This document shows positions 17,466-56,189 of a stretch of 64,000 bases of DNA, one piece after another. The notes beneath the pieces are model-generated. The model ran no database searches and was not told the origin of the DNA. It worked only from the letters and a program-made list of their open reading frames with translations. Position 1 is the stretch's first letter; every line of letters begins with the position of its first letter. Position numbers and translations under genes: made by a program. Origin of the DNA: Candidatus Limnocylindrales bacterium (GTDB lineage Bacteria > Verrucomicrobiota > Verrucomicrobiia > Limisphaerales > UBA11358). The stretch covers positions 42,362 to 106,361 of the forward strand of contig DATNHM010000064.1 in assembly GCA_035604955.1 (NCBI GenBank), in the 5' to 3' direction.

Positions 17466-17528
17466 TTCTCTGCGTTCTTTGCGCTCTTTGCGGTTAAATG
17501 AAGGGAAGCAATCGAGAATGATGAACGC

Positions 17529-19073: not shown

Positions 19074-19074
19074 G

Positions 19075-19187: not shown

Positions 19188-19214
19188 CGACAAATCGCGC
19201 GCCTGACTCCGAAT

Positions 19215-19889
19215 TCACGCCAGCCTGCGGCGGAACAACATGAGCGCCGCCAAACCCAAACCGCCCAAAGCCAGCGTAGTTGGCTCAGGAATTGAAAAGA
19301 ATGCGAATGGTTGCATAGTGGTCATAAAACCGGGAGGCTGAATTCCCGTGGCAAGCTCTGGTATTGTAAATGGAGCCGATTGCCCCCTCCACATCCCGGC
19401 ACCCTCGGACGCCGCATAGCTCGATCCATTGTAGGCCTCCACTATGAACGTGATCGGGCCTGACGTATAACTTGGAATTTCTACAGCGCCTCCAAAGAAA
19501 TATCCTGGAGCGATTCCCGACGAATACACGCTGCCCGCGCTGGGCAGCGGACCGTCAACCGTGCTGCTGAAGAAGCCGAATGGAACCGGGTACCCACCGA
19601 AGCCTGCGGTACTTGCACCGGAATTGGCTTGCGTAAGCAATGTATAGGAAAAGCCATTCAGTGAATACAGAAGGTCGGCGGTGAATTCGGAACCGACGCC
19701 AAAACCAGCTACAGTAGTCGTCCCACCATTTACCGCTTGTCCCGATGACCCGAACGTGACCGGGGCATAGAAGCGCTCAGCGCCGCTGGCGTAATTTTGG
19801 AAATAAATAGACCCTCCGGCATTCGATGTCGCCACCATGGCCAACAGGCCTGCCAATCCAAGTATTGATGCCAAGATTGCTCTTTTCAT
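19215..19889 (-). CDS. PEP-CTERM sorting-domain secreted protein (Gly/Tyr/Ser-rich), paralog of 24367..25038
   Basis: Signal peptide MKRAILASILGLAGLLAMVATSNA; C-terminus IPEPTTLALGGLGLAALMLFRRRLA. Shares YFQNY, FIVEAYNGS and WRGQSAPF with 24367..25038. Confidence 0.8.
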   Translation of the reverse strand: MKRAILASILGLAGLLAMVATSNAGGSIYFQNYASGAERFYAPVTFGSSGQAVNGGTTTVAGFGVGSEFTADLLYSLNGFSYTLLTQANSGASTAGFGGYPVPFGFFSSTVDGPLPSAGSVYSSGIAPGYFFGGAVEIPSYTSGPITFIVEAYNGSSYAASEGAGMWRGQSAPFTIPELATGIQPPGFMTTMQPFAFFSIPEPTTLALGGLGLAALMLFRRRLA

Positions 19890-20129
19890 ATTGATCCCCT
19901 TCCGTTTTGGTTGATTGGCGATGGGTAAAGACGGATCTTTTCTGAACACAATCATCCTATCTCATTTACTGTGATAATTCAATCACAAACCATAATTTAT
20001 CGAAAAGGCATGGAGGACTGGGCCGGCCGTCGTACCTGCCAGACGGACTTTGTAACCCGATACTCCGCCTGTGTTCGGCGTCAGTGTTGAAAGCACGGAA
20101 AATTGGAGCGCATCCTGACACCGTTCTGG

Positions 20130-20257
20130 GTAGGGACGGCGCGTTGCGCCGTCCGCGCCGCGTCCAGCGGCGCGAGGTCGTGGAAACCCTGGATTCCCAA
20201 GTATTCCTTTCCGCCCGCTACTTCGCGGGCGGGGCCGCCGCAGCGCAGCGGCCCTAC
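20130..20257. repeat. GTAGGG...CCCTAC bounded multi-hairpin REP-like element
   Basis: gtagggacggcgcgttgcgccgtcc ... ggggccgccgcagcgcagcggccctac. Confidence 0.65.
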
Positions 20258-20286
20258 CGGCTAAGGACAGTGTCAAGATGCACGCG

Positions 20287-20372
20287 AAAATTGCGATATG
20301 CGATTTACCATTTACGAAGCTTGTTTGATAATGAGGGCGCGCGTAAATCGCAGATCGTAAATCGAAAATAAC
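20287..20372. repeat. heptamer hairpin module (TTTACGA)n / (TCGTAAA)n abutting a start codon
   Basis: aaaattgcgatatgcgatttaccatttacgaag ... cgtaaatcgcagatcgtaaatcgaaaataac, then caac-ATG (20376). Confidence 0.7.
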
Positions 20373-20375
20373 AAC

Positions 20376-21920
20376 ATGAATCAACCGCAACAGGTTGCTC
20401 AAGGTGCCGTGGCCAGAATGGTCCAAATGGCGGACGCAGCCTGGGAACAGCGCCATTTCCAGCCATGTTTTGAGTTGATGGAGCAGGCCAGCCGTTTGGA
20501 CCCGGCCAATTTTGGGATCCTGCTAAACCTGGGCCAGCGTTATGGGTTGCGCTATGACTACGCCGCGGCTGAACGCTGCTTTGAACAAGCCGTGCGCGTG
20601 GCCAAAGATAAGACCCACGTGCTGACCGCAGCGGGCGAGTTGTCCGACTTTTTCGCCAACCCCAAACTGCCTGAGCAGTATTTTAAAAAGGCCATGGAGC
20701 AACAAGACGCGCCGGCCGGAACTTTCGCCAAAGCGGCGGAATTCTACGAACGTCTGCGGCGGATGGAAGAGGCCTCCACGTCGTTGGACCGCGCATTGCA
20801 ATTGGACCCCAAGTGCGGCCTGGCCTGGCTGGCTCGCGCCCGGCTGCTTCGCCACGCGGGAAACCTGGAGGAAGCCGAAATGGTCCTTCGTCCCATTCTA
20901 ACCACCGCGGAGCGGGAAGTGCGGATTCGCGGCTACTATGAACTGGGCGCCATTCTGGATCGGCAAGGACGTTACGATGAGGCCATGGCGGCCTTTCTGG
21001 AGGCCAAGAAGATATTGCTGGAGAATGCCCGGCCCATGATTGCCAATTTGCTGGCGGGCCGCGCCGTCATCAGACCACGGCGAGCCGACATCAAGGCCGA
21101 GGCCATGCAGGGCTGGTTTGACGCCAGAGCCGAACTCCAGCCATTCCACCGGTTGGCCCTTCTCGCGGGCCATGCGCGCTCGGGGACAACGCTGCTCGAA
21201 CAAGTCCTGGATTCGCACCCGGACATCATCTCAGCGGAGGAAACAGAGATTTTTATGGATGACGCGTTCCTGCCTCTCCGGGCCGGTCTTCCGCCAAATA
21301 TCACCATGTTCGGCGTTCTGAAACTGGCGCAGACCTCCGCCTTGAGACAATCCCGCGAACGCTATTTCCGCACGATGGAGCTGCACTTGAACCAACCCAT
21401 CGGCAACAGGCTGCTGCTTGACAAGAATCCCACGGTCACCTATCGCGTTGCGGCTTTTGCCCGGATTTTCCCGGAAGCAAAGATTCTACTCATGTTGCGG
21501 GATCCGCGGGACGTGGTGATGAGTTGCTTCATGCAACCCTACCTGCACATTGAGGTAACCGGCCTGTCTTATCTCACCCTCGATCTTACCGTTGACGATT
21601 ACACCTTCGTGATGGAGGCGTGGAAAGCCCACGGCCCTTTACTCAAAAACCCGTGCCTGGAAGTGCGCTACGAAGACACCGTGGCCGATTTGGAATCAGT
21701 CTCCCGGCGCGTGCTGGACTTTCTGGGCGTGTCCTGGGACGCCTCGGTGCTGAAATTTGACGAGCACGCGCGAACCAGGAAGGTGAAGTCGCCCACCTAC
21801 GCCGATGTGACCCAGCCGGTCTATAAGCGCGCCCAGGGCCGCTGGCGGAATTATGAGAAATATCTGAAGCCGTATCTGCCCAAATTGGAGCCGTTCGTGA
21901 AGGCGTTTGGGTATCAATAG
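20376..21920 (+). CDS. TPR-repeat sulfotransferase, paralog 4
   Basis: 514 aa; AGHARSGTTLLEQVLDSHPD (P to A in the PSB loop) and LRDPRDVVMSCF. Confidence 0.85.
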   Translation: MNQPQQVAQGAVARMVQMADAAWEQRHFQPCFELMEQASRLDPANFGILLNLGQRYGLRYDYAAAERCFEQAVRVAKDKTHVLTAAGELSDFFANPKLPEQYFKKAMEQQDAPAGTFAKAAEFYERLRRMEEASTSLDRALQLDPKCGLAWLARARLLRHAGNLEEAEMVLRPILTTAEREVRIRGYYELGAILDRQGRYDEAMAAFLEAKKILLENARPMIANLLAGRAVIRPRRADIKAEAMQGWFDARAELQPFHRLALLAGHARSGTTLLEQVLDSHPDIISAEETEIFMDDAFLPLRAGLPPNITMFGVLKLAQTSALRQSRERYFRTMELHLNQPIGNRLLLDKNPTVTYRVAAFARIFPEAKILLMLRDPRDVVMSCFMQPYLHIEVTGLSYLTLDLTVDDYTFVMEAWKAHGPLLKNPCLEVRYEDTVADLESVSRRVLDFLGVSWDASVLKFDEHARTRKVKSPTYADVTQPVYKRAQGRWRNYEKYLKPYLPKLEPFVKAFGYQ

Positions 21921-30104: not shown

Positions 30105-31922
30105 TCATTGGGGTGGCGGGGCCAAAAAGGTGTGGAGGCCGATCGGGAATTGGGGAGATTCCAACCAGTCGGCCAGAAGATTTAACTCGATACCGGTGAA
30201 ACCGATGGTGGATTTGCGGGTGAAGGACAGTTGATTGGGGCCGGTTTGGGTAATGACGGTGAGACTGGCGCCGAGCCTGGGAGCAATGTCTTTAAGCCAG
30301 AGCGTCGCCGGAGCACTGAATGGCAACTGGTCCTTATTGCAAACAAGGCGGGCAAACTGGCCCATGTAAAGCCATTGTTCGGTTCGCGGGCCGGTGATTT
30401 CCCAATCGTAATAGACCGCATTGGTCCGGTTCAAGACGGCTTGCAGCGATTGAAGCGACAGTGGCAGGGCAGGTGGTATTGGTTGGAACGCGCCGCCAAA
30501 AATGAAGCTCTGGCGGTTGATGTTCGTATAAAGCACGAATGGGTACATATATGGGACGCCCTTCCACTCCAAGCCGTTGAAGGCGGCAGATTTTTCGAAC
30601 TTTGAAAGACCGTTTGTCGGAAACCAGCGGTATTGCTTTCGCAAGACCAAATCGGTCAGCCTGGAAACCGTGTTGCTGGCTTCCGGGAGCGGCGTCGCGA
30701 AATAGCTGAGCATATTAAGCCCCGGCATCGCCCAAAAACAGATCTGATCCGGCGGCGGGCCGATTTGGAGATTAGTCCAGAATGGCGATGAGGCCAGCCA
30801 GGGCTGGAATCCCCGAATGGCAGTGAAACCGGACAGATGTTCATCAATCAGATTGGTGGGGATGTTCCACGGTTTCAGTTCGAGCGCCAGCGGCTCCGGA
30901 AAATCGACCGTGCCGTTCAACAAGACGTTGGTGACGTCACCGGTCGCGGACAGATGAAGGCGGTTGAGAGTGAAAATGTCTTTCGAACCCACCTCACCCC
31001 GGCCACTGGATTTGTTCTCATCCCCACCACCCTCAACCGCCCTGTGGGCACCTTCTCCCGCTCCCGCGAGCGAAGGAACTTCCCCCGCTGTACGGGCGGA
31101 GAGGGAGAAGACAGCGGCGAGTCGCGCCGGGTCGAGGTCGGCTTCGAGCCAGTCTCCCGGGTTCCGTACGTTCCAGGGCGGCAGGGCACGGTGCGTTCGG
31201 AGCCGCAGTTCGGCAATCAAACCATTGAAGTCTTCAGCCGCCCCCACGATGGTCCACGCGCCAATACGGGTCAGCTCAATGACGTTGGGGGAATGATGCT
31301 TTTTGAGCGACCAGCCGTATGAACCCTGAGGTGCCGGGACAGGCTGGAGGCTGGTCAATGATTCCAGGACCGCGGCGAGATTGGTCTGCCACAAGGCGGC
31401 GCGCTGGTCGTCCAGCCGGATGGCCAAGGCAAGCTCAGCCGGTTGATTGGCTACCTGACGAATTTCCAGATACGACTCACCGGCGACCAGATCGTCCAGC
31501 AACGGCCGCAAAAGAGCGGCGGCATTGGTGTCAAGGTTGCGATGCAGCAAAGGCCAGGGGGCGAGGGAAAGTTTGTCCAGGGTTTGTTGTTCGAGCCGCC
31601 GGCTTTCGGGCAGGTTCCAAATCGTCAGCAAAGAAGCCGCATTGGTCCCGCCGGAGAGCTGTTTCATTCCCGACCAGTGAACGCGGGCAACAATCGGCAT
31701 GGAAGCCGTCGGCGGCGTCTGGCCCGGAGGCGTGTTTTCGGCGGACTGGGCTGGCCGGGCGCCGGCCAGCAACATAACGGCGGCAAACAGGATGAATAGG
31801 TTTCCATTTTGCCCGGAAAATCGTTTGCCGTATAACGATTTTGCCGGATGCAAAAAGGCAACGCGTGGCATGTTCATTATCCGCTGTTTTATGCCAAAAC
31901 CAGGGGCCATCGGCAATTTCAA
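30105..31922 (-). CDS. hypothetical secreted protein (no recognised domain), contains one in-frame ~105-bp repeat element
   Basis: 605-aa ORF with a hydrophobic N-terminal segment LFILFAAVMLLAGARPAQS; start ambiguous among M1/M16/M18. Confidence 0.55.
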   Translation of the reverse strand: MKLPMAPGFGIKQRIMNMPRVAFLHPAKSLYGKRFSGQNGNLFILFAAVMLLAGARPAQSAENTPPGQTPPTASMPIVARVHWSGMKQLSGGTNAASLLTIWNLPESRRLEQQTLDKLSLAPWPLLHRNLDTNAAALLRPLLDDLVAGESYLEIRQVANQPAELALAIRLDDQRAALWQTNLAAVLESLTSLQPVPAPQGSYGWSLKKHHSPNVIELTRIGAWTIVGAAEDFNGLIAELRLRTHRALPPWNVRNPGDWLEADLDPARLAAVFSLSARTAGEVPSLAGAGEGAHRAVEGGGDENKSSGRGEVGSKDIFTLNRLHLSATGDVTNVLLNGTVDFPEPLALELKPWNIPTNLIDEHLSGFTAIRGFQPWLASSPFWTNLQIGPPPDQICFWAMPGLNMLSYFATPLPEASNTVSRLTDLVLRKQYRWFPTNGLSKFEKSAAFNGLEWKGVPYMYPFVLYTNINRQSFIFGGAFQPIPPALPLSLQSLQAVLNRTNAVYYDWEITGPRTEQWLYMGQFARLVCNKDQLPFSAPATLWLKDIAPRLGASLTVITQTGPNQLSFTRKSTIGFTGIELNLLADWLESPQFPIGLHTFLAPPPQ

Positions 31923-31933
31923 TTACGGTCGGC

Positions 31934-31993
31934 GGTCAGCAGTCAGTAGTCAGTAGTTTTTACCCGTCCCTTGTCACTCGTCACTCGTCACGC
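31934..31993. repeat. composite module (CAGYAGT)n-TTTTTA-(CCGTCAC-like)n
   Basis: ggtcagcagtcagtagtcagtagtttttacccgtcccttgtcactcgtcactcgtcacgc; same architecture as 30040..30104 and 26140..26207. Confidence 0.85.
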
Positions 31994-32064
31994 ACCAGGA
32001 TTTTCAACGGCATCCATTTCGCGAACGGCTTGTCATTCTCGCGCGCGGGATTATCCTTGGGGCT

Positions 32065-32679
32065 GTGAACAAAACGTGGCATCGCTGGCTGCCGGTGATT
32101 TTCGTGGCGCTGGTGGCGTTGAGCCGCTGGCCGGGGTTGTTGCCGCCTAATTTCAGCGCGGCCACGGCCCTGGCGTTTTGCGCGGGCGTTTATCTGTCCG
32201 GGGCCATGGCCTGGTGGCTGCCGCTGGGCACCATGGCCGTGACCGACGTGGCGCTGAACGTGTTCTATTATCACACGTCCCCGGTGGGCGGTTATCTGCT
32301 GTTGAATTACCTGGTTTACGCGGCCCTCATCTGGTTCGGACGGCAAATGGGAAGGCGCGCGTCCTTCCTCAAGCTGCTGGCGGGCGGGGTGCTGGGCGCG
32401 ATGGCATTTTATCTGATTACCAACACGCTGGCGTGGCTGGAAAACCCGGTCTATGCCCGGACCCTGGCCGGCTGGATCCAGGCGCTGACGAGCGGCCAAC
32501 CCGGTTTTCCGCCGACCTGGGAATTTTTCCGAAACACCCTCATGAGCGGCGGGCTGTTCACCGCCCTGTTCGTGGCGGCAATGAAACTGACCGCGCCGGC
32601 CGAATCGCCCGTGGAAAAGGAGGCGGGCGCGCGCCCGGCGCCGGAAACCGAGGAAGAACCGGAGGAGGCAAAGGCGTAA
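32065..32679 (+). CDS. hypothetical polytopic membrane protein
   Basis: 204 aa with five to six hydrophobic helices and an acidic C-terminal tail; no motif recognised. Confidence 0.55.
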   Translation: MNKTWHRWLPVIFVALVALSRWPGLLPPNFSAATALAFCAGVYLSGAMAWWLPLGTMAVTDVALNVFYYHTSPVGGYLLLNYLVYAALIWFGRQMGRRASFLKLLAGGVLGAMAFYLITNTLAWLENPVYARTLAGWIQALTSGQPGFPPTWEFFRNTLMSGGLFTALFVAAMKLTAPAESPVEKEAGARPAPETEEEPEEAKA

Positions 32680-32775
32680 CATGTGGCGAGTGGCGGGTGG
32701 CGAGAGACGCGATTTTGCCGCCGGCCGCCCACAGCTATCCCCTCTCGTCACCCGTCACCTGTCACCTGTCACTCT

Positions 32776-33240
32776 ATGAAGATAGGCGTCATTTCGGACA
32801 CGCATAACTTTTTGGACCCGAAAATCCCGGAACGGTTTGCGGGGGTGGGCCACATTCTGCACGCGGGCGACATCGGATTGCCGTGGATTTTGCAGGAGCT
32901 GGAACAGGTCGCGCCGGTCACGGCGGTGAGCGGCAACACAGACGATCCGGCGTTGCGTTATGCGGCAGCCAAAACCGTCGAACTCGCCGGCCGGAAATTC
33001 TTCATCCAGCATATCGTCCGGCCGCACGATTTGAATGAAGACCTGAAACGACGCCTCGCGCGCGAACGGCCAGACGTGGTGGTGTTCGGCCATACGCACC
33101 AGCGTTTTTGCGAGTCGCTGAACGGCGTGCTGTATTTCAACCCCGGTTATGCGGGCCAGCCGAAGTTGGGTGCGGAACGGAGCGTGGCCATTTTGCACTG
33201 CGACAGGAAGGGAATCCGTGCAGAATATGTGGAGTTGTGA
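32776..33240 (+). CDS. YfcE/MJ0936-family metallophosphoesterase
   Basis: MKIGVISDTHN, HAGDIG, GNTD, GHTH motifs in canonical order. The ATG follows directly after the (CGTCACY) array 32743..32774. Confidence 0.8.
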   Translation: MKIGVISDTHNFLDPKIPERFAGVGHILHAGDIGLPWILQELEQVAPVTAVSGNTDDPALRYAAAKTVELAGRKFFIQHIVRPHDLNEDLKRRLARERPDVVVFGHTHQRFCESLNGVLYFNPGYAGQPKLGAERSVAILHCDRKGIRAEYVEL

Positions 33241-33258
33241 TTCGCCCATGCCCCCCCC

Positions 33259-33368
33259 CGGCTCGTCAGTAGCCTCGCCCCACCGCCTAGCGGGATGTGA
33301 CGAGTGACGAGTGACGAGTGACATGAAAAGCGCGGACCGTTGACTGCTGACTACTGACTTTTGACTGC
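33259..33368. repeat. REP-B half copy, (GTGACGA)x4 array and (TGACTRC)x4 array
   Basis: cggctcgtcagtagcctcgccccacc 33259..33284; gtgacgagtgacgagtgacgagtgac 33297..33323; ttgactgctgactactgacttttgactgc 33340..33368. Confidence 0.8.
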
Positions 33369-33414
33369 AGCGTTTTTGCTTTCGCTGCCGCGCCGCCTTT
33401 GTTAAAGAAATCGC

Positions 33415-34344
33415 GTGCGCAAACTGTTTTGGATCATTTTAAGCCTGGGCCTTGGCGGCGGGTTCGCCACCACCCGCGCCGATACGCTTCAACTGGCGGA
33501 TGGCACCTCGGTTTCCGGCGACATTGTCATGATCAACGACAGCGGCGTCAAACTCCGGCTGCCGGACGACACCTATACCAACGTGGTATGGCCGAAGTTC
33601 TCCCAGGACGCGTTGAAGCAGCTCGGCAAAAACCCGAAAGCCAAATCGTTCGTCGAGCCGTTTATCGAAACCCCGCCGCCGCAACCCAAAAACGAGGCCA
33701 TCGAAATCCGCGACGTGTCGCGCCCGGAGTTGCCGCCGCCGGGTTCCCTGTTGGCAACGCTGCTGTCCTCGTCGGTGGGTTTTGTCGCCCTGTTGTTGAT
33801 TTACGCGGCCAACATCTACGCCGCCTATGAAATCGCCATCGTGCGCGCGCGACCCATCGGGATGGTGATGGGGGTGGCGGCGGTGTTGCCGATTCTGGGG
33901 CCGATTATTTTCCTTTCCCTGCCGATGCGCACGGAGGCGCCGCCGGATGAAACGCAAACCGAGGCGGAAGCACAGACCTACGCGGTGCCGGGCGCGGCGG
34001 CGCCGGTGGCGGCAGGCCTGTCCACGACGGGCATCCGCGTCGCCCCAGCGGGGGCGAAGGCCGGGCACCCGGAAGCCCAGGTGTTCCAGCGCGGCCAGTT
34101 CATGTTCAACCGCCGGTTTTTTGAAACGAAATTCTCCGGTTTCTTCAGTGTGATCCGGCGGCCGGCGGAAAAAGACCTGGTGCTCGTGATCAAAACCGCG
34201 CGCGCCCAGTTGATTGCCCAGCGCATCAGCCGCATCGCCGCCAACGAAGCGTACTTCGAGGTGGTCCAGGGCGGGAAGTCGCAGGAGGTCATGGTGCCGT
34301 TCGCCGACATCCAGGAAATTCAACTCAAACACAAGGACGCGTGA
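33415..34344 (+). CDS. hypothetical membrane protein
   Basis: GTG start; signal-like N-terminus MRKLFWIILSLGLGGGFA; two central TM helices; no motif recognised. Confidence 0.5.
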   Translation: MRKLFWIILSLGLGGGFATTRADTLQLADGTSVSGDIVMINDSGVKLRLPDDTYTNVVWPKFSQDALKQLGKNPKAKSFVEPFIETPPPQPKNEAIEIRDVSRPELPPPGSLLATLLSSSVGFVALLLIYAANIYAAYEIAIVRARPIGMVMGVAAVLPILGPIIFLSLPMRTEAPPDETQTEAEAQTYAVPGAAAPVAAGLSTTGIRVAPAGAKAGHPEAQVFQRGQFMFNRRFFETKFSGFFSVIRRPAEKDLVLVIKTARAQLIAQRISRIAANEAYFEVVQGGKSQEVMVPFADIQEIQLKHKDA

Positions 34345-34435
34345 AGAGTGACACGTGGCGAGTGACGGGTGACGTGAAGGACAGCCCGGTCCTGCGCCAA
34401 ATGTTCCCGTCACCCGCCACCCGTCACCCGGCACC
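34341..34435. repeat. inverted pair of (GTGACGR)/(CGTCACC) arrays forming a long hairpin
   Basis: gtgaagagtgacacgtggcgagtgacgggtgacgtgaagg - 26 nt - ccgtcacccgccacccgtcacccggcacc. It spans the upstream stop codon and ends 3 nt before the adk ATG. Confidence 0.8.
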
Positions 34436-34438
34436 CCT

Positions 34439-35017
34439 ATGAAATACCGCACGATTCTCATGTTTGGCGCGCCCGGCTCGGGCAAGGGCACGCATGGCCG
34501 GAACCTCGGCGTCATTCCGGGTTTTTTCCATTGCGCCTGCGGCGACGTCTTCCGCAACCTCCGTCCGGACAGTCCGCTCGGCAAAGTCTTTCTCGAACAT
34601 TCCAGCCAGGGCGAGCTGGTGCCGGACCAGCCGACGATTGAACTCTGGCGGCAATACATTGAAACCAGCACGAAAATCGGGCGGTTTCATCCCGGCGAGG
34701 ACACGCTGGTGCTCGACGGCATTCCCCGGAGCGTGCCGCAGGCTGAGATGTTGAGCGACACGCTCGACGTCGTGGCCATGTTTTACCTTACTTCCAGCCG
34801 GGAAAACCTCGTCGCCCGCATGCAGCGCCGCGCCATGAAGGACAACCGCCTCGACGACGCGAACCTCGACGTCATCCGCCAGCGCCTCAAGACTTACGAG
34901 AAGGAAACCAAGCCCGTCATCAATTTCTACGGCAAGAAGCTCGTCCACCGCATCAACACCGACCAGCCGCCGGTAAAGACGTTTCTCGACATCCTCAAAC
35001 AGGTCGTGAAGCTTTGA
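34439..35017 (+). CDS. adk: adenylate kinase family protein
   Basis: P-loop GAPGSGKGT, then CACGDVFR and LVLDGIPRS motifs. Confidence 0.75.
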   Translation: MKYRTILMFGAPGSGKGTHGRNLGVIPGFFHCACGDVFRNLRPDSPLGKVFLEHSSQGELVPDQPTIELWRQYIETSTKIGRFHPGEDTLVLDGIPRSVPQAEMLSDTLDVVAMFYLTSSRENLVARMQRRAMKDNRLDDANLDVIRQRLKTYEKETKPVINFYGKKLVHRINTDQPPVKTFLDILKQVVKL

Positions 35018-48398: not shown

Positions 48399-49763
48399 TT
48401 AAAATTTCCACATCAGGTCAGCCATGGCATGGACCGCGCCGGTTTTGACGCCGGGCACGGGATTATTGATGAGGTCGTTGATATAACAGGTGAATGAGAA
48501 GGTCAGCGAGTCAAAGATCGAATAGTTGAATTTGACCAGGTGGCCTTTGATGTTGGTGCCACCGACCGCGGTGCCGGTTTCGGGGACAACCGCCGGTGTC
48601 GTGGGCGTGACGGCGATATTGTCGTCATCCACGATCTGGTCCCACCACGCATCCGCCTCCAATCGTTGATAACGATAGGAAATGTCCCAAGCACCCCTCT
48701 TACCGGATTTGCCGAAGGTCACCCCGCCCCACCAGCCTTTGTTGTTGCTGCCGGCGCCGGGGTTGTCCAGGTATTCGCCCGCCAGCTTGACGGGAAACGC
48801 CCCGGGATAAAGCGGGAAGCTGTCCAGCGTGTAGGTCAGGCTGCCGCTGACGGCAATGGGATTGAAGTCGTAGGCATAGCTCCCGGCGGTCAGCGTGTTC
48901 CCCAGGTTTGTATCATAAGTGGTCTTCAAATTCGCCTTGTCCACGATGTCATAGGCGGCAACGCCCAGGGCGGAAGCGAGCTTTGGCGTCCAACTCGCGT
49001 TCCAGATGGCCTGGCCGCCATAAAGGAAGGGACCGCGGGTGTTTACCTGGTCGAGCACAAACGCCGCGCTGTTGAACGCAAGCGAATTCCGGTCATTGAT
49101 ATTGTAGGTCGCCTGCAATGCCGCACCTTCCGGGGTATAATCGGGATCGAACAGCATGTACGACTCCTGAAACGGCTGGTCCATCTTGCCGATGGTTCCG
49201 GCCACCATCCAGGTTTCGTTGTTGATCGGCGTCCATTTGCCGTAGGCGGTATCCACATAAATATATTTTTTGGAGGCGTTCCCCTGGAGGGTCGTGTTGT
49301 TGGACAGCGGATTTCCGCCCGTGGGGTTGCCGGCCGACGGCGCGTCACCGGTGCCCAGCCGGAAGCCCACCTGCAAATTGTCCTTCATGTTGACAATCAA
49401 GCCGGCCCGCAGGCGATAACGCAAGCGGATATTGTTGTCGTGACCGCCAAAGGCCGGAATTTCCGTGCTGACATCGTCGAACCGTCCGCGGAAATCACCG
49501 TACAGCTTGTAACTCGTTATCCAATCCGACATCGGGAAGCGGGAATTCATCGCCTTGTTGAAATCTGCGACCGAATTCGTCGCGTTCTCGGCCTTCAGTT
49601 CGTCCGCTTCATTTGGCGTCAGAATGCCTTTTTGTTCCAGTTTGTTGAGCAGGTTGTCCACGGACGTTTGCGCGTGGGTGTTGGGGGTCAACGCCATCAG
49701 CGCAGCGGCGCCGGCAACAATGGCAGCTTGGGTGGTGGTCTGATGATTTTTGAGTTTTTTCAT
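48399..49763 (-). CDS. outer-membrane porin (putatively phosphate-regulated)
   Basis: Signal peptide ..AAALMALTPNTHAQ, an N-terminal coiled segment, then alternating beta-strand-like sequence ending in ...DLMWKF. Placed first in the pst operon. Confidence 0.6.
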   Translation of the reverse strand: MKKLKNHQTTTQAAIVAGAAALMALTPNTHAQTSVDNLLNKLEQKGILTPNEADELKAENATNSVADFNKAMNSRFPMSDWITSYKLYGDFRGRFDDVSTEIPAFGGHDNNIRLRYRLRAGLIVNMKDNLQVGFRLGTGDAPSAGNPTGGNPLSNNTTLQGNASKKYIYVDTAYGKWTPINNETWMVAGTIGKMDQPFQESYMLFDPDYTPEGAALQATYNINDRNSLAFNSAAFVLDQVNTRGPFLYGGQAIWNASWTPKLASALGVAAYDIVDKANLKTTYDTNLGNTLTAGSYAYDFNPIAVSGSLTYTLDSFPLYPGAFPVKLAGEYLDNPGAGSNNKGWWGGVTFGKSGKRGAWDISYRYQRLEADAWWDQIVDDDNIAVTPTTPAVVPETGTAVGGTNIKGHLVKFNYSIFDSLTFSFTCYINDLINNPVPGVKTGAVHAMADLMWKF

Positions 49764-49791
49764 GGTTGTCGTTTGCTGTGCGACGGCAGGC

Positions 49792-49842
49792 TGAGACAAC
49801 ATTGTTACAATCAAGCGGAGGAAATGTTACATTCGCGTGACA
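49792..49842 (-). promoter_or_regulatory. Pho-box-like direct repeats upstream of the porin-pst operon
   Basis: Minus strand: TGTCACG-cgaa-TGTAACA (49842..49825) and TGTAACA-atgt-TGTCTCA (49809..49792). These are 7-bp repeats at 11-bp spacing, as in PhoB boxes. Confidence 0.45.
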
Positions 49843-49942
49843 AGACAACCTGGTCACGATTCCGCGGAGAACAGGTGACAGCCAGATGGCCGACCGGAAT
49901 TGGCGGGAAAAGAAAAAACGTGTGCGATGAAATGTCCGGAAA

Positions 49943-50497
49943 TTACATCGCGCGGAAAGCGGTCAGGCCCAGCAGCACGATAAAAATCGCAAACGCCAGT
50001 CGGATGGTGCTGGTCACGCGGATGCGCGTCTCGGTGGCGGTGGCCCAATTGATAAAATCACGCACCCGCCACGGCGTCACGGTGAACCAGATGCCCGCGA
50101 CGACGAGCACGTAGGCCCACGTTTGAATCACCCACACCCAATGTGTCTCACCCAGATGCGGTCGCCCGGTATCCACCATCAATTTCGCCAGCAATAGCAT
50201 CACCACCGCCAGCCCGCGCACGGCCAGAAAGTCCTGAATAAAAAAACAGCTCAAAATGCCCACCGCCACAAAACCCGCCATCATTGCCGGTTTGAAGGCC
50301 GCGAAATCGGACACCGACTCGATGTGGACGTTCCAGACAAACCAAGCCGTGCCCAGCAACATAAGCGCGACGCCGAGCGGCAGATTGCGGGGAAACTTGC
50401 GGGCCGCCACCGCGAATTTCTGCGGCTGCGTAATGCCATAAAACTGCGGCACGGCCATGCCGAGTCCGAGCAAAATGGTCAGCAACGACAATTTCAT
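49943..50497 (-). CDS. hypothetical membrane protein
   Basis: 184 aa with five to six hydrophobic helices; no motif recognised. Confidence 0.5.
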   Translation of the reverse strand: MKLSLLTILLGLGMAVPQFYGITQPQKFAVAARKFPRNLPLGVALMLLGTAWFVWNVHIESVSDFAAFKPAMMAGFVAVGILSCFFIQDFLAVRGLAVVMLLLAKLMVDTGRPHLGETHWVWVIQTWAYVLVVAGIWFTVTPWRVRDFINWATATETRIRVTSTIRLAFAIFIVLLGLTAFRAM

Positions 50498-50595
50498 CGC
50501 GGGGAATTAAACATGAATCCCGATGAATCGCGAGCAAATTGACGCGGAAAAATTCAATCTGGACAACCCTCCGTGCGAAAAATAGCGTGGCCCGG

Positions 50596-51366
50596 ATGAA
50601 TTCAGGCGGAGCAAAAATGCATTTTGCAGTTTCGGGCTCCGGCGACATCCCGTTGATTTGCACCCACGGCTGGGCCTGCAACGGTGAACAATTCATCGAG
50701 TTGAGCCGGCTGCTGGCAAAGGATTTTTGCATTTTCCGCCCGGATCTGCCGGGGCATGGTCAAACTTCATTGAACGGATTTAAACCCGGATTTGAACGAT
50801 ATGCCGATGTGATCGTGGATTTTGCACTACAACATGGGCTGAAGCACCCGGTGCTGCTTGGACACAGCATGGGCGGCGTACTGTCATTGATGGCCGCAGC
50901 CACCGGCCGGCTTGGACCCCAGGCGGTCATCAATTTCGATGGCAGCCTGCCGGCGACAGAAAAAACCCTGGCCGGTCAGATGCAGATTCGTCGCTGGCTC
51001 GACAAGCCGGATTTTCGAAAGCGGTTGGCCAAGTTGTTGCGGAAGGCATTCTTTCTGCCATCCGAACGCGGCGCCGGTTGTGAGGCCATTCTTCAAACGA
51101 TGTGTTCCGCGCCGGAGGCCGTGTTGCGTTTCCTGCCGGAACAGATCGGCGAGCTACACCCGCATCGCATTTTACCCGAGGTGACCGCCCCGGTTTTATT
51201 CGTCGGCAGTGCTGCTCCGCGGTTTGACGCTCAGGAAGCATCGAGGTTGCTTCCCCAACTTCGGTTCGAACGGGTTCCGGACGCCGGCCATTTTCTGCAT
51301 GTTTACGCTGTTAACAAGGTGGCGACCGTCGTCAGACAGTTCTTGATGCCGTTGCTTGTGCGCTGA
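50596..51366 (+). CDS. alpha/beta-fold hydrolase
   Basis: HGW oxyanion region, nucleophile elbow GHSMGG, C-terminal PDAGHF. Start at 50596 or 50617. Confidence 0.75.
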   Translation: MNSGGAKMHFAVSGSGDIPLICTHGWACNGEQFIELSRLLAKDFCIFRPDLPGHGQTSLNGFKPGFERYADVIVDFALQHGLKHPVLLGHSMGGVLSLMAAATGRLGPQAVINFDGSLPATEKTLAGQMQIRRWLDKPDFRKRLAKLLRKAFFLPSERGAGCEAILQTMCSAPEAVLRFLPEQIGELHPHRILPEVTAPVLFVGSAAPRFDAQEASRLLPQLRFERVPDAGHFLHVYAVNKVATVVRQFLMPLLVR

Positions 51367-51372
51367 GCTGAT

Positions 51373-51457
51373 TTACAAATTCACAATCGCCGGGTCGCCG
51401 TAGAGCGTGATGGAACCGGCGCGGGTGATTTTTACGTCCATGAGCTGGCCGCGATGC
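51373..51457 (-). pseudogene. orphan duplicate of the miaB 3' end
   Basis: 51386..51457 matches 52002..52073 with 4 mismatches in 72 nt. It reads HRGQLMDVKITRAGSITLYGDPAIVNL*, against HRGQLMDVKITRAGSFTLYGDPAILE* in miaB. Confidence 0.8.
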
Positions 51458-51462
51458 TCGAT

Positions 51463-51789
51463 TCAGAAGCGCAATTGAATCCGGCTTCCCCAAATCTTCT
51501 TAATCTCTTGCGCGTCGCTGGCCGAAAGCACGCCAAGTTTGCGGCGAAGAAGAATCTGCTCCAGACAATCCAAGCGGGAAAGCCTCACCGTGGACGCGAC
51601 TCGCAACCCTTCAGATTGCCAATCTGTCAAAGGGACGTCAGTGGATGAGCGCGGCGGCGCAGAAGTGACGGCGGCAACAACAACGTCCGAAGCGTCAAGC
51701 CAAAGCACCAGAACCGGCCGTATTTTGGATGCTGCGCCGCTGGTAAATGGAATATCCGCAAGCCAGATTTCACCGGGTTGCAGCGTCAT
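51463..51789 (-). CDS. PemK/MazF-family toxin
   Basis: MTLQPGEIWLADIPF...KIRPVLVL resembles the MazF/PemK N-terminus; overlaps the upstream small ORF by 20 nt. Confidence 0.65.
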   Translation of the reverse strand: MTLQPGEIWLADIPFTSGAASKIRPVLVLWLDASDVVVAAVTSAPPRSSTDVPLTDWQSEGLRVASTVRLSRLDCLEQILLRRKLGVLSASDAQEIKKIWGSRIQLRF

Positions 51790-51949
51790 CGTAGAGTCCT
51801 TCGTCTCCCGGAGCGTAGCTGTTCAGAAATGCGCTGTGGTCACGGGCAGGTTGAGTTTGTCGCTTCCGATCAATCCAAGCAACCAGTCTTGAAAAATCCT
51901 TTGGCGGCAGTTGTTCAACCGCTTGCTCAATTTCCTCAACTTTGCTCAT
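51770..51949 (-). CDS. small antitoxin candidate (addiction-module component)
   Basis: Not in the ORF track (59 aa). MSKVEEIEQAVEQLPPKDFSRLVAWIDRKRQ... was translated by hand; ATG at 51949, TGA at 51770. Confidence 0.55.
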   Translation of the reverse strand: MSKVEEIEQAVEQLPPKDFSRLVAWIDRKRQTQPARDHSAFLNSYAPGDEGLYDDAATR

Positions 51950-51991
51950 GCTGAAAAGATACAGCCGCCAATCCGCTGTTGCAAGAATCCA

Positions 51992-53428
51992 TTACTCTAA
52001 AATCGCTGGGTCGCCGTAGAGCGTGAAGGAACCGGCACGGGTAATTTTTACGTCCATGAGCTGGCCGCGATGCCGTTCCGAGCCGTCGAATACCACAATC
52101 CGGTTACACCGCGTCCGGCCGGTCATTCGCGCCGGATTTTTTTTGCTCGGCCCTTCCACCAGAATCTGCAGCTGCCGCCCGACCAACGCGCTGTATCTGC
52201 ATTTGGCGATCTCGTTGATGATTTCCAGCAACCGCTGGTTGCGTTCCTCGCGTACTTTTTGCGGCACCTGGTCGGGCAACGCGGCGGCAGGGGTGTCGCG
52301 CCGCTGCGAGTATTTAAAAATGTACGCCTGGTCAAACTCCACTTCGCGCGCGAGTGAAAGCGTTTCCTTAAAATCGTCTTCGGTTTCACCGGGAAACCCG
52401 ACGATGAAGTCGGTGCTGACACCGATGTCCGGTTTGGCAGCACGCAGTTTCTCGACGATGCCGAGGTAACGTTCGCGCGTGTAACCGCGGTGCATCAATT
52501 TCAGCACGCGGTTGCTGCCGCTCTGGACGGGCAGATGCGCGCTTTCGACCAGTTTCGGCAGTCGCGTGTAAGCCTCGATTAAATCGTCGCCGTAACCCTT
52601 GGGATGCGGCGAGGTGAACCGGATGCGTTCCAGTCCCTCGATTGCGTGAACGGCTTCGAGGAGTTGAACAAATGGAGAAAGTGACGGGTGACGGGTGACG
52701 GGTGACGAGACACTCGCGTCACGCGTCACGCGCCACTCGTCACGTTTTTCGTGTTTCCCATAACTCGTCACAATCTGGCCAAGCAGGGTGATTTCCTTCA
52801 CGCCCTGCGCCACCAACTGGCGGCACTCGGACACGATGTCCGGAATGCTGCGGCTGCGTTCCCCGCCGCGCGTGTAAGGCACAATGCAAAACGTGCAGTA
52901 TTGATTGCAGCCCTGCATGATGCTGACAAACGCCGTCACCGGTAGCGGTGGTCTATGACCGTCGCCATCTCCCCCGCCATTCTTTGCGCCATTTCCGTAT
53001 AGCAGATGCTCGCGAATGGTCGCTTCGCTCCCCTGCTCTTCCGCCACGTCCACGATTTTTTCCGCGCGACCGGCCAGGATTTCGCCGAGGCAATCCGCCG
53101 CGCGATGAAATTTCTGCGTGCCGAGGACCAGATCCACGTCCGGCAACCGGTCAATGAGCTCCTGCCCGCGGCTTTGGGCCATGCACCCCATGAACCCGAG
53201 CACGACGTCGGGCCGGTCGCGGCGGACGTCCGCGGCCAGGTTTTCCATTTTCCGGAGGGCCTTTTGCTCGGCGAGGTCGCGCACGCTGCACGTGTTGAGC
53301 AGGATCACATCCGCCACAGTTTCGGACGGCGCGAGCGTGTAACCCTTGGCCACGAGTTGTGCGGCGACGGCTTCGCTGTCGCGCTCGTTCATCTGGCAAC
53401 CGTAGGTCTTGATGTAAACACTCGGCAT
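51992..53428 (-). CDS. miaB: tRNA-i6A37 methylthiotransferase MiaB, with an in-frame heptamer-hairpin insertion
   Basis: N-terminal YIKTYGCQMN, radical-SAM CNQYCTFCIVP, C-terminal TRAM domain. Insertion RVTRDASVSSPVTRHPSLS is encoded by 52681..52744. Confidence 0.9.
   Translation of the reverse strand: MPSVYIKTYGCQMNERDSEAVAAQLVAKGYTLAPSETVADVILLNTCSVRDLAEQKALRKMENLAADVRRDRPDVVLGFMGCMAQSRGQELIDRLPDVDLVLGTQKFHRAADCLGEILAGRAEKIVDVAEEQGSEATIREHLLYGNGAKNGGGDGDGHRPPLPVTAFVSIMQGCNQYCTFCIVPYTRGGERSRSIPDIVSECRQLVAQGVKEITLLGQIVTSYGKHEKRDEWRVTRDASVSSPVTRHPSLSPFVQLLEAVHAIEGLERIRFTSPHPKGYGDDLIEAYTRLPKLVESAHLPVQSGSNRVLKLMHRGYTRERYLGIVEKLRAAKPDIGVSTDFIVGFPGETEDDFKETLSLAREVEFDQAYIFKYSQRRDTPAAALPDQVPQKVREERNQRLLEIINEIAKCRYSALVGRQLQILVEGPSKKNPARMTGRTRCNRIVVFDGSERHRGQLMDVKITRAGSFTLYGDPAILE
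52681..52744. repeat. inverted heptamer arrays (GTGACGG)x4 / (CGTCACG)x3 inside miaB
   Basis: gtgacgggtgacgggtgacgggtgacgag-aca-ctcgcgtcacgcgtcacgcgccactcgtcac. Confidence 0.9.
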
Positions 53429-53497
53429 GGGGACGAGAGAAGCGGCAATTTAGGCCATTCCGATCGCCTTGGAAAGGTGGAAAGACGCGGGCATTCC

Positions 53498-53564
53498 GGG
53501 AGCGCCGGCATCTTGCCGGCGAGTTCTACTGTCTGAGACACGCGGGCAAGATGCCGGCGCTCCC
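53498..53564. repeat. 20-bp perfect inverted repeat with 27-nt loop
   Basis: GGGAGCGCCGGCATCTTGCC ... GGCAAGATGCCGGCGCTCCC; a compact relative lies at 12891..12923. Confidence 0.8.
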
Positions 53565-53754
53565 ATAAAGGGTTTTCCCCGTGCTTTAGAGGCAGCGGCC
53601 AATCCCGGTAAAATTATTCCCAAAATTTGATTGGCAAGTTTGGACAAGTTGGGCTTTATTATCAGCAGGTCATGGGAACCAACCGAGCAGTTCGACGACC
53701 CGCTTTCGCCGCAGTCCGGCGCAGCCATCCAAACCTTCAACCGGAGGACTTCCA

Positions 53755-54009
53755 ATGGACATACATCATCCCTTCGTGACGGAATTCCCCGAACATCGCG
53801 AAACCATCCGTTCGCTCAAGCTGGCGAACACCCAGTTCCGCGCGATGTTCGAGGAATATCACAAACTCGACGACGAAATCTGCCGCATCGAAGAAGACAT
53901 CGAGTACGCCACCGATCAGGAACTCGACGAACTGAAGTTCAAGCGCGCCAAACTGAAGGACGCGCTTTATTCCGCCGTGCGCAAGCACGAGACGGCGCTC
54001 GTGCACTGA
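53755..54009 (+). CDS. DUF465 (YdcH-like) protein
   Basis: 84 aa; FRAMFEEYHKLDDEICRIEE...ELDELKFKRAKLKD is typical of DUF465. Confidence 0.7.
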   Translation: MDIHHPFVTEFPEHRETIRSLKLANTQFRAMFEEYHKLDDEICRIEEDIEYATDQELDELKFKRAKLKDALYSAVRKHETALVH

Positions 54010-54098
54010 GCGCCGGACGATTTGATTTGGCGGACCGCATTTTCGCCACGCTGATTTCGCCATCAAGGCTTGAAAGCGCTTGAGCCGATTTCAGTTTT

Positions 54099-56189
54099 CT
54101 AGTGCGTTTCCACCGCGGCTTTCCGCTTTTTGGCTTCCTCAATCACTTTCTCCGTCGCCTCGCGCGGCATTTCTTCGTAGTGGCTGAATTCCTCGGTGTG
54201 AACACCGCGGCCGCCGGTCAGCGACCGGAGTGTGCTCGAATAATGGTAAAGCTCCTTGGCCGGCACGCTGGCCTTGATGAGCTGAAACGCGCCGTCGGTG
54301 TCCATGCCGATGATTTTGCCGCGCCGCGATGACAGGTCGCCCATCACCTTGCCCATGCAATCCTCGGGGATGCGGATTTCGACCGTTTCAATCGGCTCCA
54401 GCAAAACCGGCCGGGCCGCCATGAACGCCTCCTTGAACGCGAAGTAGCCGGCGATTTGAAACGCGATGTCCTTCGAGTCCACCGGGTGCATCTTGCCGTC
54501 GTAAAAGTCAATCTTCACGTCGGTCACGCGGCAGCCGGCGAGGATGCCCTCGGTGCAGGCCTGATTCACCCCTTTCTCCACGGACGGCACGAAGACGCGG
54601 TCCACGTTCTGGCCGACGAGCGAGTTGTTGAACTCAACGCCGGTGTCGCGCGGCTTCGGTTCGATGCGCATCCAGACCTCGGCGAACTGGCCCGCGCCAC
54701 CGGTCTGCTTCTTGTGCCGGTATTTTGAATCGCCCTTGCCCTTGATGGTTTCGCGGTATTTGACGCGTGGCTCGCCCAATTCGACATGCACATTGTGCCG
54801 GCGGCGCAAGCGGTCGGCGACCACTTCCAGGTGCAATTCGCCCTGCGCGGAAATGATGGTCTGGTGCAATTCCGCGTCCACGACGTAAAGGAACGTCGGG
54901 TCCTCATGGTGCAAGGCGGCCAATCCGGACGCGACTTTATCTTCCTCGCCCTTCACCCTGGTCACGAGCGCGGCGTGGATGTTCGGCTTGGGATAAGCCA
55001 CCCTGGGCAGCGTCACCGGATGCTTGGCGTTGCAGAGCGTATTGCCGCTGTGGCTGTCCTTGAGCTTCACCGTCGCGGCGATGTCGCCGGGGCCGAGCGT
55101 GGGAACGGCCTCGCGGGTCTGGCCGTTGAGCAGATAAATCTGCCCGATGCGTTCGCTGACCTTGCGGTCGCTGTTGAACAAATCCATGCCGGTGGAAATC
55201 GAGCCGGCATAGACGCGAAAGAACGACAGTTCGCCGAAGTGCGCCTCGGCCATCGTTTTGAAGATGTAAACCACCGGCTCGCCGCTTTCGAGCGCCACCT
55301 CGACGTCCTTGCCATTGCCGTCCATCGCCTTGACCTTTTTGCGGTCCACCGGCGACGAACCGTATTTGGCAATGAAATCCATCAGCCGCGCCACGCCGAT
55401 GTTGTTTTCCGCCGAGACGGCGAACAGCGGAATCAACAGTTCCTTCTGCACCGCCGCGTGGATACCGGCGCGGAACTCCTCCTCGGAAAGACTGCCCTGC
55501 TCGAAAAATTTGTTCATGAGCTCGTCATCGGACTCGGCGATGTGTTCAATAAGCTGGCCGTGCAATTCCTTGACCCGGGCCTCCCATTCGCCGGTGGCCG
55601 GTTCCTCCTGATACTTGCCGGAACCGTCCGTCGCATAGGTGACGATTTCATTGCGCAGCACGTCAAGGACCTTGTTGAAGCCGGGCCCGGCGTTCACCGG
55701 CACGGCCAACGGAAACACGTGCCGGCCAAAATGCTCCTGCAATTGCCTGACCACGGCGTCAAAATCCACGTTCTCCCTGTCCACGGCATTGATTACAATC
55801 ATTTTCGGAATGCCATAGCCGGTCGCGTAATTCCAGACGCGGTCCGTGCCGACGCCGAGGCCATGATTGGCGTGGACAACCACCAGCGCGAAATCACCGA
55901 CGCGCAACGCGCCCAGACCTTCGCTGATGAAATCGAGGTAGCCGGGCGTGTCAATGATATTGAACTTCTTGCCCGCCCATTCCGTGTGCAACAAGGACGC
56001 CGAGACGGAAATCTGCCGGTTTTTCTCGCTGACGTGATAATCCGAGACGGTGGAGCCGTCGGCGATGCGGCCCATGCGGTTGATGACGCCGCCGCACAGG
56101 AGCATCGCCTCGCTGAGCATCGTCTTGCCCGACGAAGCGTGGCCGACGACGGCAAAGTTCCGGATGTCTGCTGGCTGATAGGTTTTCAT
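54099..56189 (-). CDS. elongation factor G family GTPase (EF-G2-like paralog)
   Basis: G1 GHASSGKT, G3 DTPGYLDF; domain order as in EF-G, but the N-terminus diverges from canonical fusA (AHIDAGKTT). Confidence 0.8.
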   Translation of the reverse strand: MKTYQPADIRNFAVVGHASSGKTMLSEAMLLCGGVINRMGRIADGSTVSDYHVSEKNRQISVSASLLHTEWAGKKFNIIDTPGYLDFISEGLGALRVGDFALVVVHANHGLGVGTDRVWNYATGYGIPKMIVINAVDRENVDFDAVVRQLQEHFGRHVFPLAVPVNAGPGFNKVLDVLRNEIVTYATDGSGKYQEEPATGEWEARVKELHGQLIEHIAESDDELMNKFFEQGSLSEEEFRAGIHAAVQKELLIPLFAVSAENNIGVARLMDFIAKYGSSPVDRKKVKAMDGNGKDVEVALESGEPVVYIFKTMAEAHFGELSFFRVYAGSISTGMDLFNSDRKVSERIGQIYLLNGQTREAVPTLGPGDIAATVKLKDSHSGNTLCNAKHPVTLPRVAYPKPNIHAALVTRVKGEEDKVASGLAALHHEDPTFLYVVDAELHQTIISAQGELHLEVVADRLRRRHNVHVELGEPRVKYRETIKGKGDSKYRHKKQTGGAGQFAEVWMRIEPKPRDTGVEFNNSLVGQNVDRVFVPSVEKGVNQACTEGILAGCRVTDVKIDFYDGKMHPVDSKDIAFQIAGYFAFKEAFMAARPVLLEPIETVEIRIPEDCMGKVMGDLSSRRGKIIGMDTDGAFQLIKASVPAKELYHYSSTLRSLTGGRGVHTEEFSHYEEMPREATEKVIEEAKKRKAAVETH

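Follow-up and report, generated by a model that had tools for sequence, protein, structure and literature searches.

Restriction-modification gene complexes are said to insert into genomes with a long duplication of the target, a mode reportedly described by Nobusato and colleagues in 2000. Homology-facilitated illegitimate recombination is a different route, seen in the uptake of foreign DNA by Acinetobacter and Streptococcus pneumoniae; its classical cases usually delete recipient DNA and do not duplicate it. The movement of chromosomal toxin-antitoxin cassettes without a mobility gene is, to our knowledge, poorly documented, and no direct precedent for toxin-antitoxin cassettes with long target duplications was found in the literature searched. 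Here we describe a two-gene cassette of the MazEF/PemIK kind inserted into the 3' end of miaB, a tRNA (i6A37) methylthiotransferase gene, in 64,000 nt of Verrucomicrobiota DNA (contig DATNHM010000064.1, positions 42,362 to 106,361). This whole stretch is called the window, and positions are counted from its first letter.

As defined by Furuta, Abe and Kobayashi (2010; PMC2853133), an insertion with long target duplication is shorter than 20 kb, carries homologues of restriction (R) and modification (M) genes and no other mobile-element genes, and is flanked by a target duplication of more than 30 bp which aligns with a single copy in a related insert-free genome. The miaB cassette agrees in structure, with an insert of 543 bp and a repeat of 73 bp; its cargo is a type II toxin-antitoxin pair and not a pair of R and M genes. 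It works like this class without being a member of it as originally defined. Common to both are a small addiction-type complex, the lack of a mobility gene, and repeats above 30 bp which vary in length, overlap gene 3' ends and are single-copy in insert-free relatives. Apart from the cargo, the miaB case differs in that its repeat copies are demonstrably orthologues of two lineages, in that spread by homologous recombination is seen, and in its hosts, which are uncultured Verrucomicrobiota. The DNA breakage proposed for restriction-modification systems is not a cause here, because what the cassette carries is a toxin-antitoxin pair. A paper on mycoplasma mentions direct repeats next to such a pair as scars of recombination (PMC8562856).

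Integrative elements that target the 3' ends of genes or tRNA genes share with the cassette a replacement 3' end, a displaced native end, direct repeats and empty sites. Unlike them, the cassette has no integrase that could be found, measures 0.5 kb with two genes, and has relatives with unrelated targets, variable repeats and unfixed breakpoints. The likeness to homology-facilitated illegitimate recombination lies in one homologous anchor (miaB, or an epimerase-like gene at locus L134) combined with one putative illegitimate joint; that mode also accounts for copies of donor and recipient type and for a donor-like form without the repeat (L093). The difference is that a duplication is left instead of a deletion in the recipient. 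Labels such as L001 denote the contigs or loci compared, and WIN denotes the window locus. The data come entirely from metagenome contigs, of which some are short, and the trees are simple neighbour-joining (NJ) trees.

The cassette and the two ends of miaB

All features of the cassette and of miaB lie on the minus strand. A repeat search of the region found one direct-repeat family, with copies at 52001-52073 (R1) and 51385-51457 (R2): 73 nt, 69 of them identical (95%), with starts 616 nt apart. An earlier note on this DNA, made from the letters alone, had described the same repeat one base shorter (51386..51457 and 52002..52073, 68/72 identical, 616 bp apart). A degenerate 66-nt pattern of the repeat has exactly two matches in the window and none in 100 dinucleotide-preserving shuffles.

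R1, the upstream copy, belongs to an intact and functional miaB. The open reading frame (ORF) at 51992..53428 encodes 478 aa with the Pfam domains UPF0004, Radical_SAM and TRAM, has at least 8000 homologues at E<=1e-50, several of which are named MiaB by their source, and reads ..HRGQLMDVKITRAGSFTLYGDPAILE / ..GSFTLYGDPAILE before its stop (tail AILE). Its last 27 codons consist of R1 (codons ~452-476, placed by repeat search, pattern match and codon comparison) and the tail codons L-E-stop (TTAGAGTAA, 51992..52000), which locus comparison and the MiaB tree identify as the usual cassette-adjoining tail in other lineages. R2 reads IEHRGQLMDVKITRAGSITLYGDPAIVNL up to a stop at 51373 and has the tail AIVNL, of which V-N-L-stop (51373..51384) is the displaced native tail. 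R2 also carries a change from phenylalanine to isoleucine at a residue which is phenylalanine in all 120 homologues among the matches listed, and for this reason it is taken to be a dead copy. The two miaB ends with divergent tails that the earlier note had recognised are therefore of unequal standing, the upstream one completing miaB and the downstream one being a displaced, non-functional fragment.

The interval between R1 and R2 holds two ORFs only, a PemK/MazF-type toxin and a 59-aa antitoxin candidate, as the ORF list and a Pfam match bear out. The toxin gene (51463..51789) encodes 108 aa that match PF02452 (PemK_toxin) with E 1.2e-11 and 45.2 bits against a cut-off of 23.1, over profile positions 2-103 of 109. 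A profile built from 30 toxin homologues matches the solved chains 4of1_A, 2mf2_A and 4mzm_A of the mRNA interferase MazF (E 5.7e-5 to 1.1e-4), and the toxin is probably an RNase (endoribonuclease). A search of the Protein Data Bank (PDB) with the single toxin sequence, NCBIfam and PADLOC gave no match, and an AlphaFold2 model from 30 close homologues was poor (mean pLDDT 52.9, pTM 0.42). There are at least 1534 toxin homologues, mostly from Verrucomicrobiota metagenomes. A joint of 5 nt (51458..51462) separates the toxin stop from the displaced miaB fragment. The toxin frame and the R2 frame agree in the window and disagree in L097, L098 and L148; read-through of the toxin into R2 was considered and rejected on that ground.

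The antitoxin candidate (51770..51949) is co-oriented with the toxin gene, lies immediately upstream of it, overlaps its start by 20 nt and is co-conserved with it in more than 50 loci. Its C-terminal motif, DHSAFLNSYAPxDEGLYDD, is found family-wide, and its N-terminus is variable. The pair resembles MazEF and PemIK (Kid-Kis) in the PemK_toxin domain, in the similarity to solved MazF, in the small upstream overlapping antitoxin gene and in purifying selection; it is unlike them in that the antitoxin candidate matched no described family in Pfam, NCBIfam, PADLOC or a single-sequence search of the PDB. The ratio of non-synonymous to synonymous substitution rates (dN/dS) is 0.01-0.07 in the toxin gene; that of the antitoxin gene is 0.12. 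By this measure both cassette genes evolve under strong purifying selection, and the cassette is by all signs functional.

The miaB stop and the antitoxin start are separated by 42 nt (51950..51991). These hold a promoter-like arrangement (51984..51956) of TTGCAA (51984..51979), a 17-nt spacer and TATCTT (51961..51956), read from the sequence, which is probably the cassette promoter. A CTTGC motif upstream of the antitoxin is conserved in the relatives. Since a promoter and terminator consensus scan near the cassette found no site above threshold, it is the conservation that argues for this promoter.

The same two-copy structure is present in L001-L004, which comprise JGI contigs of three samples and a Logan contig, and the ENA contig L089 contains a 98%-identical version of the arrangement. 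Five independent assemblies agree in the structure, although their samples and pipelines differed, and more than ten other contigs contain diverged versions of it. The earlier note had named an assembly artefact as one way in which the two copies could mislead. A false duplication produced by assembly or binning has only the general risk of metagenome data in its favour, and because the same structure recurs in independent assemblies it can be regarded as excluded for practical purposes.

The miaB gene itself contains, at 52681-52744, tandem heptamers (GTGACGG x3.9, then CGCGTCA x4.3) which give the radical-SAM region a low-complexity insert, ..RDEWRVTRDASVSSPVTRHPSLSP..; among the relatives, MiaB length ranges from 451 to 548 aa. 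Between miaB and a divergent DUF465 gene, at 53498-53564, there is a 27-nt inverted repeat, 93% complementary, with a 13-nt loop. A sub-threshold miRNA-model match on this hairpin, which is spurious, was the only result of an Rfam scan of 49000-55000.

Empty sites, occupied sites and relatives at other loci

The MiaB relatives come from Verrucomicrobiota, mostly from metagenome-assembled genomes (MAGs) of Limisphaerales type from peat and soil. The gene order is PAS/SpoIIE regulator, EF-G-like GTPase, DUF465 gene, miaB, the cassette where present, hydrolase, 184-aa membrane protein, porin and pst genes. Comparison of related miaB loci, which the earlier note had put forward as the test of its insertion claim, shows that the cassette is an insertion into the miaB end. 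Empty sites are of three kinds. In L087 and L088 (MiaB 91% identical), miaB ends in AIVNL and the convergent hydrolase stop follows after 6 nt; past R2, the window has precisely this layout. In L086 (MiaB 95% identical), the promoter region of the 184-aa gene comes immediately after the tail AIINL, and in L147 miaB runs straight into that gene. The single miaB end of L086, like that of L087, can be aligned with both repeat copies of the window. A contig search with MiaB supplied 85 cassette-less miaB loci among the matches listed, mostly distant relatives (best 82%), and none of them has a second miaB end or a toxin in its flanks. The duplication without an insert which would have told against the insertion is thus absent from these 85 loci, and an ancient tandem duplication of this sort was rejected.

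A metagenome scan with the toxin returned 55 loci, and others came to light when further proteins were looked up by exact match. At least eight other lineages (L089, L097, L098, L099, L103, L112, L114, L148-150, L151 and L152-156) have a cassette with 75-94% toxin identity behind miaB, and the miaB-linked toxins fall within one subclade of the toxin tree. The displaced miaB fragment begins 0-9 nt past the toxin stop in every locus that extends that far; R2 follows the toxin in all complete occupied loci (WIN, L089, L097, L098, L112, L148-150, L151 and L152-156). The joint is the same within 4 nt in L089, L097, L098, L112 and L148, and that of L152 is a 27-nt deletion derivative, which points to one founding event.

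The tails of the two miaB ends behave differently. A tail in ILE adjoins the antitoxin promoter in WIN, L089, L097, L099, L103, L114, L148 and L151; it is mostly AILE and once, in L103, DILE. The displaced tails differ by lineage (IVNL, IENL, FVLGED, FVLGVD and ILE). In an NJ tree of 121 MiaB proteins, from which the last 30 residues had been removed, the AILE tail is polyphyletic and scattered among IVNL-type clades. The miaB genes of L148 and L147 are 99.3% identical up to the tail; L148 continues with AILE, the cassette and an R2 ending in FVLGED, and L147 has the tail AILGED and no cassette. The view of the earlier note that the insertion brought a replacement gene end is borne out by this pattern, in which a polyphyletic ILE tail adjoins the cassette in most occupied loci and the displaced copy keeps the tail of its lineage.

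Over WIN, L089, L097, L112 and L148, R1 and R2 differ in 36 codons, of which 29 differ synonymously and 7 non-synonymously (binomial p ~3e-11 against a neutral expectation of 27% synonymous), and the differing sites vary between loci. Because the differences are mostly synonymous, R1 and R2 must have diverged while selection still acted on each of them as the working miaB end of its own lineage. By codon comparison the two copies are orthologues from two lineages, and not a duplication decaying in situ.

Divergence also changes sharply inside the repeats when relatives are compared. Between the window and L089, miaB is 2.1% diverged, whereas the segment that holds antitoxin, toxin and the 5' half of R2 differs at 1 of 528 positions (Fisher p ~0.001); in the 3' half of R2 the divergence is 16%, and beyond it the sequences are unrelated, a 637-nt AT-rich segment replacing the hydrolase gene. 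Differences between L003 and the window are confined to the part upstream of a point within R1. R2 of L148 and the region beyond it are only 83-90% identical to the sibling L147. L145 and L146 share 99.9% identity as far as ..GCGATT, and from there on their tails and downstream cargo differ. For L097 and L148, synonymous divergence (dS) is 0.41 in the toxin as against 0.71 in miaB, but between the window and the others the toxin dS is saturated; the histories of cassette and host gene therefore disagree. As read from these mosaics, the cassette has been exchanged between lineages by crossovers inside or adjoining the repeats.

The flanks of cassette relatives were compared at 33 loci with at least 200 nt on both sides, loci at contig ends being excluded. 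Direct repeats of at least 30 nt flank 6 of the 33 cassettes and 2 of 384 random control intervals (p ~4e-6), and both positive control intervals contain the same repeat. The control scan also turned up a 128-nt direct repeat, 94% identical, at ~700-2250 of the Verrucomicrobia MAG contig L077, ~2-3 kb upstream of miaB. The duplications that flank cassette relatives are 36-207 nt long and come from other genes. In L134 an 85-nt duplication covers the start codon and 26 codons of an epimerase-like gene, and its six differences in the alignment are all synonymous and at third codon positions. In L117 the duplication (45 nt) is the 3' end of a ketoacyl-synthase-like ORF on the opposite strand, in L126 (36 nt) the 5' region of another antitoxin gene, and in L107 (207 nt) the promoter and 5' part of another antitoxin gene. 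The pattern of duplication thus holds family-wide, miaB being only one of its targets. Across the family, 0 to 85 nt separate the toxin stop from the downstream repeat, so that the cassette is a unit without fixed ends.

In L107 (1-1300), the insert consists of the toxin and only the C-terminal part of the antitoxin, and its target was the antitoxin gene of another two-gene module, which has no annotation; in-frame fusion with the upstream copy gives a chimeric antitoxin with a foreign N-terminus and the tail ..HDAFLNSYAPEDEGLYDD.

Two relatives represent further forms. The same cassette lies directly upstream of the epimerase-like gene on two contigs of one sample, at 2760-3420 of L093 and at 2690-3420 of L134. 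L093 has a different upstream gene and is without the upstream 85-nt copy seen in L134; judged by its layout, it is the donor-like form predicted by a model with homology on one side. L094 and L095 (2715-3420 in L095) have a cassette away from any miaB, between genes for ThrE-like membrane proteins and small membrane-protein ORFs. In L095, remnants of the miaB end are present on both sides and have decayed, with a 13-nt deletion, a 14-nt insertion and non-synonymous changes. This is apparently a relocated copy that took decaying miaB fragments along on both sides, and L094 and L095 provide an internal control for the largely synonymous differences between R1 and R2 at miaB.

Origin and spread of the cassette

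The reading we prefer, with a probability of roughly 0.65, is an insertion with long target duplication through homology-facilitated illegitimate recombination, followed by spread through homologous recombination. In the founding event, a fragment from a related lineage (miaB ending in ILE, followed by the cassette) would have used miaB to pair with the recipient. The far end of the fragment, being non-homologous, would have been joined illegitimately within the recipient miaB, at about codon 452-455 and ~75 nt short of the stop. The incoming DNA would have brought a complete miaB end (R1 with the ILE tail) and so kept miaB intact, and the resident end (R2 with the VNL tail) would have been pushed downstream as a dead fragment. 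Two orthologous copies of the gene end would result without a transposase or an integrase. A duplication would always be seen when the joint falls inside a gene, because selection keeps only those insertions that leave the target intact. Later spread and reshuffling among Limisphaerales-like lineages would have proceeded by homologous recombination, with miaB/R1 as homology arm on one side and R2 or the downstream 184-aa gene on the other. Toxin-antitoxin addiction would oppose loss of the cassette through deletion between R1 and R2. Of this sequence of events, the illegitimate joining, the direction of transfer and the addiction effect are what we infer. The orthology of donor and recipient copies, which homology-facilitated recombination leads one to expect, is visible in the 29 synonymous against 7 non-synonymous codons at miaB and in the six third-position differences of L134.

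A number of points weigh against this reading. A miaB-linked locus without R2, the postulated donor form, was not found among the loci compared, and since the donor's original downstream sequence is missing, the joint could not be checked for microhomology. No natural competence or other route of DNA uptake is known for these organisms. The AILE tail occurs once without a cassette (L145, with a DUF6308-like gene in the place of the cassette), and the cassettes of L112 and L152 are preceded by an IVNL-type tail and a spacer of ~130 nt; on account of these three loci, the history of the left junction must be more complex than a single model allows. The loci in the count of synonymous and non-synonymous codons are not fully independent. 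Several contigs are short, and strain chimeras could mimic the breakpoint of L003. The position of the joint, common to all lineages within 4 nt, is what a site-specific mechanism predicts likewise. A 12-nt stretch, GGACGTGAAAAT (GGACGTAAAAAT in WIN and L089), is identical in R1 and R2 wherever both copies cover it; in principle it could be a crossover core, though it is also plain conserved coding sequence.

The last two points bear on site-specific integration, the framing of the earlier note, which had regarded the cassette as a remnant or as a user of a trans-acting recombinase. On this account a non-autonomous integrative element, or its remnant, would carry a copy of the miaB 3' end as its attachment site (attP) and enter a matching site in miaB (attB) by means of a tyrosine or serine recombinase encoded elsewhere. 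The flanking repeats, the replacement gene end, the near-constant junction, the short identical stretch in the loci compared and the existence of both empty and occupied sites all speak for it, and the anatomy resembles that of elements that target gene 3' ends. What is missing is a common core with a fixed crossover: the genes duplicated around other family members are unrelated and the duplications vary in length and in offset from the toxin stop, and the breakpoints of relatives fall at different places in R1 and R2. The absence of an integrase from the cassette, to which the earlier note had already drawn attention, holds beyond it, as the cassette has only its two ORFs and no integrase, recombinase or transposase domain of Pfam was found in the 47 window ORFs scanned (among them nearly all those of at least 150 aa), nor any recombinase or transposase in the gene tables of neighbouring related contigs. 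L095 moved with miaB remnants on both sides, where a circle with a single attachment site would carry only one. With the near absence of other than synonymous differences between R1 and R2, these observations do not sustain the framing by attachment sites; homologous and illegitimate recombination fits them better, and site-specific integration is an improbable account. An integron gene cassette is not indicated either, both flanks being miaB coding sequence with no integrase in the window ORFs scanned, although no formal search for attC structures was run. Integration of the tRNA type is irrelevant, since the sole tRNA gene of the window lies at 9330, 42 kb from the cassette. It is similarly improbable that the cassette is a discrete non-autonomous mobile unit, reaching from the -35 box to the toxin stop, which homes actively into conserved gene ends and spares the host gene through the target duplicate. 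Such homing could use an unrecognised trans-acting recombinase or a recombination route favoured by the toxin-antitoxin pair; if it took place, the duplicated piece of a housekeeping gene would serve as a portable homology arm, and an addiction module would sweep through related genomes like a gene drive.

Two further accounts do without a recombinase. A Campbell-type integration would begin with a 616-bp circle, made of one miaB end and the cassette, released by recombination between R1 and R2 and re-entering another miaB by a single RecA-dependent crossover. It would yield exactly the donor-type and recipient-type copies observed and would fit both their synonymous-only differences and the lack of a recombinase. 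So small a circle has no evident route between cells, though, and the account leaves the first duplication and the new targets in L134, L117 and L107 unexplained; the two remnants of L095, in place of one, and the imported block of L148, which reaches far past R2, also speak against it, and we consider it unlikely. Purely vertical descent, that is one ancient insertion or in-situ duplication with repeated loss by deletion between R1 and R2 and no horizontal spread, is very unlikely. The single shared junction implies one founding event, the miaB-linked toxins fall into one toxin subclade, and the saturated dS between the window cassette and those of L097 type implies an old origin, all of which would suit it. 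However, a dead R2 older than the ~25% divergence of MiaB should have decayed, as the copy in L095 does, whereas 80% of the differences between R1 and R2 are synonymous. Other comparisons contradict it as well: the cassette is ~10 times less diverged than the adjoining miaB between the window and L089, its dS is below that of the host gene for L097 and L148, L148 and L147 share 99.3% of miaB and only 83-90% of R2 and the downstream region, and L145 and L146 part company, in tail and cargo, after 99.9% identity up to the miaB tail.

Insertion by one homologous anchor and one illegitimate joint, followed by homologous exchange, is thus the ordinary kind of recombination to which the series of variants points. 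The series is unusually complete, with empty sites, occupied lineages, a donor-like form, a relocated copy with decaying scars and a chimeric antitoxin, and its value lies more in this range than in the single locus, as integrase-free mobility of toxin-antitoxin systems becomes testable. Such an origin would extend the long-target-duplication mode from restriction-modification to toxin-antitoxin systems and to an uncultured phylum, and would mean that duplications of this sort can be orthologous pairs from donor and recipient and not products of staggered cuts.

The miaB islet and other features of the window

miaB and the 184-aa gene enclose a small islet of variable content, whose left boundary falls within the last 3-4 codons of miaB. 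It can be empty or contain the hydrolase gene, the cassette, an AT-rich segment with two ORFs, or a gene of DUF6308-like or CarboxypepD_reg-like type, and the junction is a small hotspot for cargo in these bacteria. In the window, the alpha/beta-hydrolase gene (50539..51366, plus strand; Pfam Abhydrolase_6/1) is part of the flank and not of the cassette. It is itself variable cargo: it is absent from L086, replaced in L089, L145, L148 and L152, and was detected in 1 of the 85 cassette-less miaB loci listed. The 184-aa membrane-protein gene (49943..50497, minus strand) is the conserved neighbour and right-hand anchor of the islet; it adjoins miaB in L086 and L147 and was found by tblastn in cassette-less miaB loci (60 hit rows).

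The AT-rich segment that stands in the place of the hydrolase gene in L089 (7057-7694) contains two small minus-strand ORFs, one for a Cys-rich protein of 85 aa and one for a membrane protein of 102 aa with a faint superinfection-immunity match (E 0.006). It came with a miaB-end tail of its own, AIENL.

Elsewhere in the window, four consecutive minus-strand ORFs of 605, 256, 189 and 410 aa (30105-34671) have no Pfam match at E<=1e-4. At 12927-21920, four TPR-sulfotransferase genes, interspersed with genes for PEP-CTERM proteins, come after an APS kinase gene. Three of the four sulfotransferases are 514-aa paralogues (15459-17003, 17529-19073 and 20376-21920), and the arrangement suggests a cluster for sulfated exopolysaccharide or for protein sorting.

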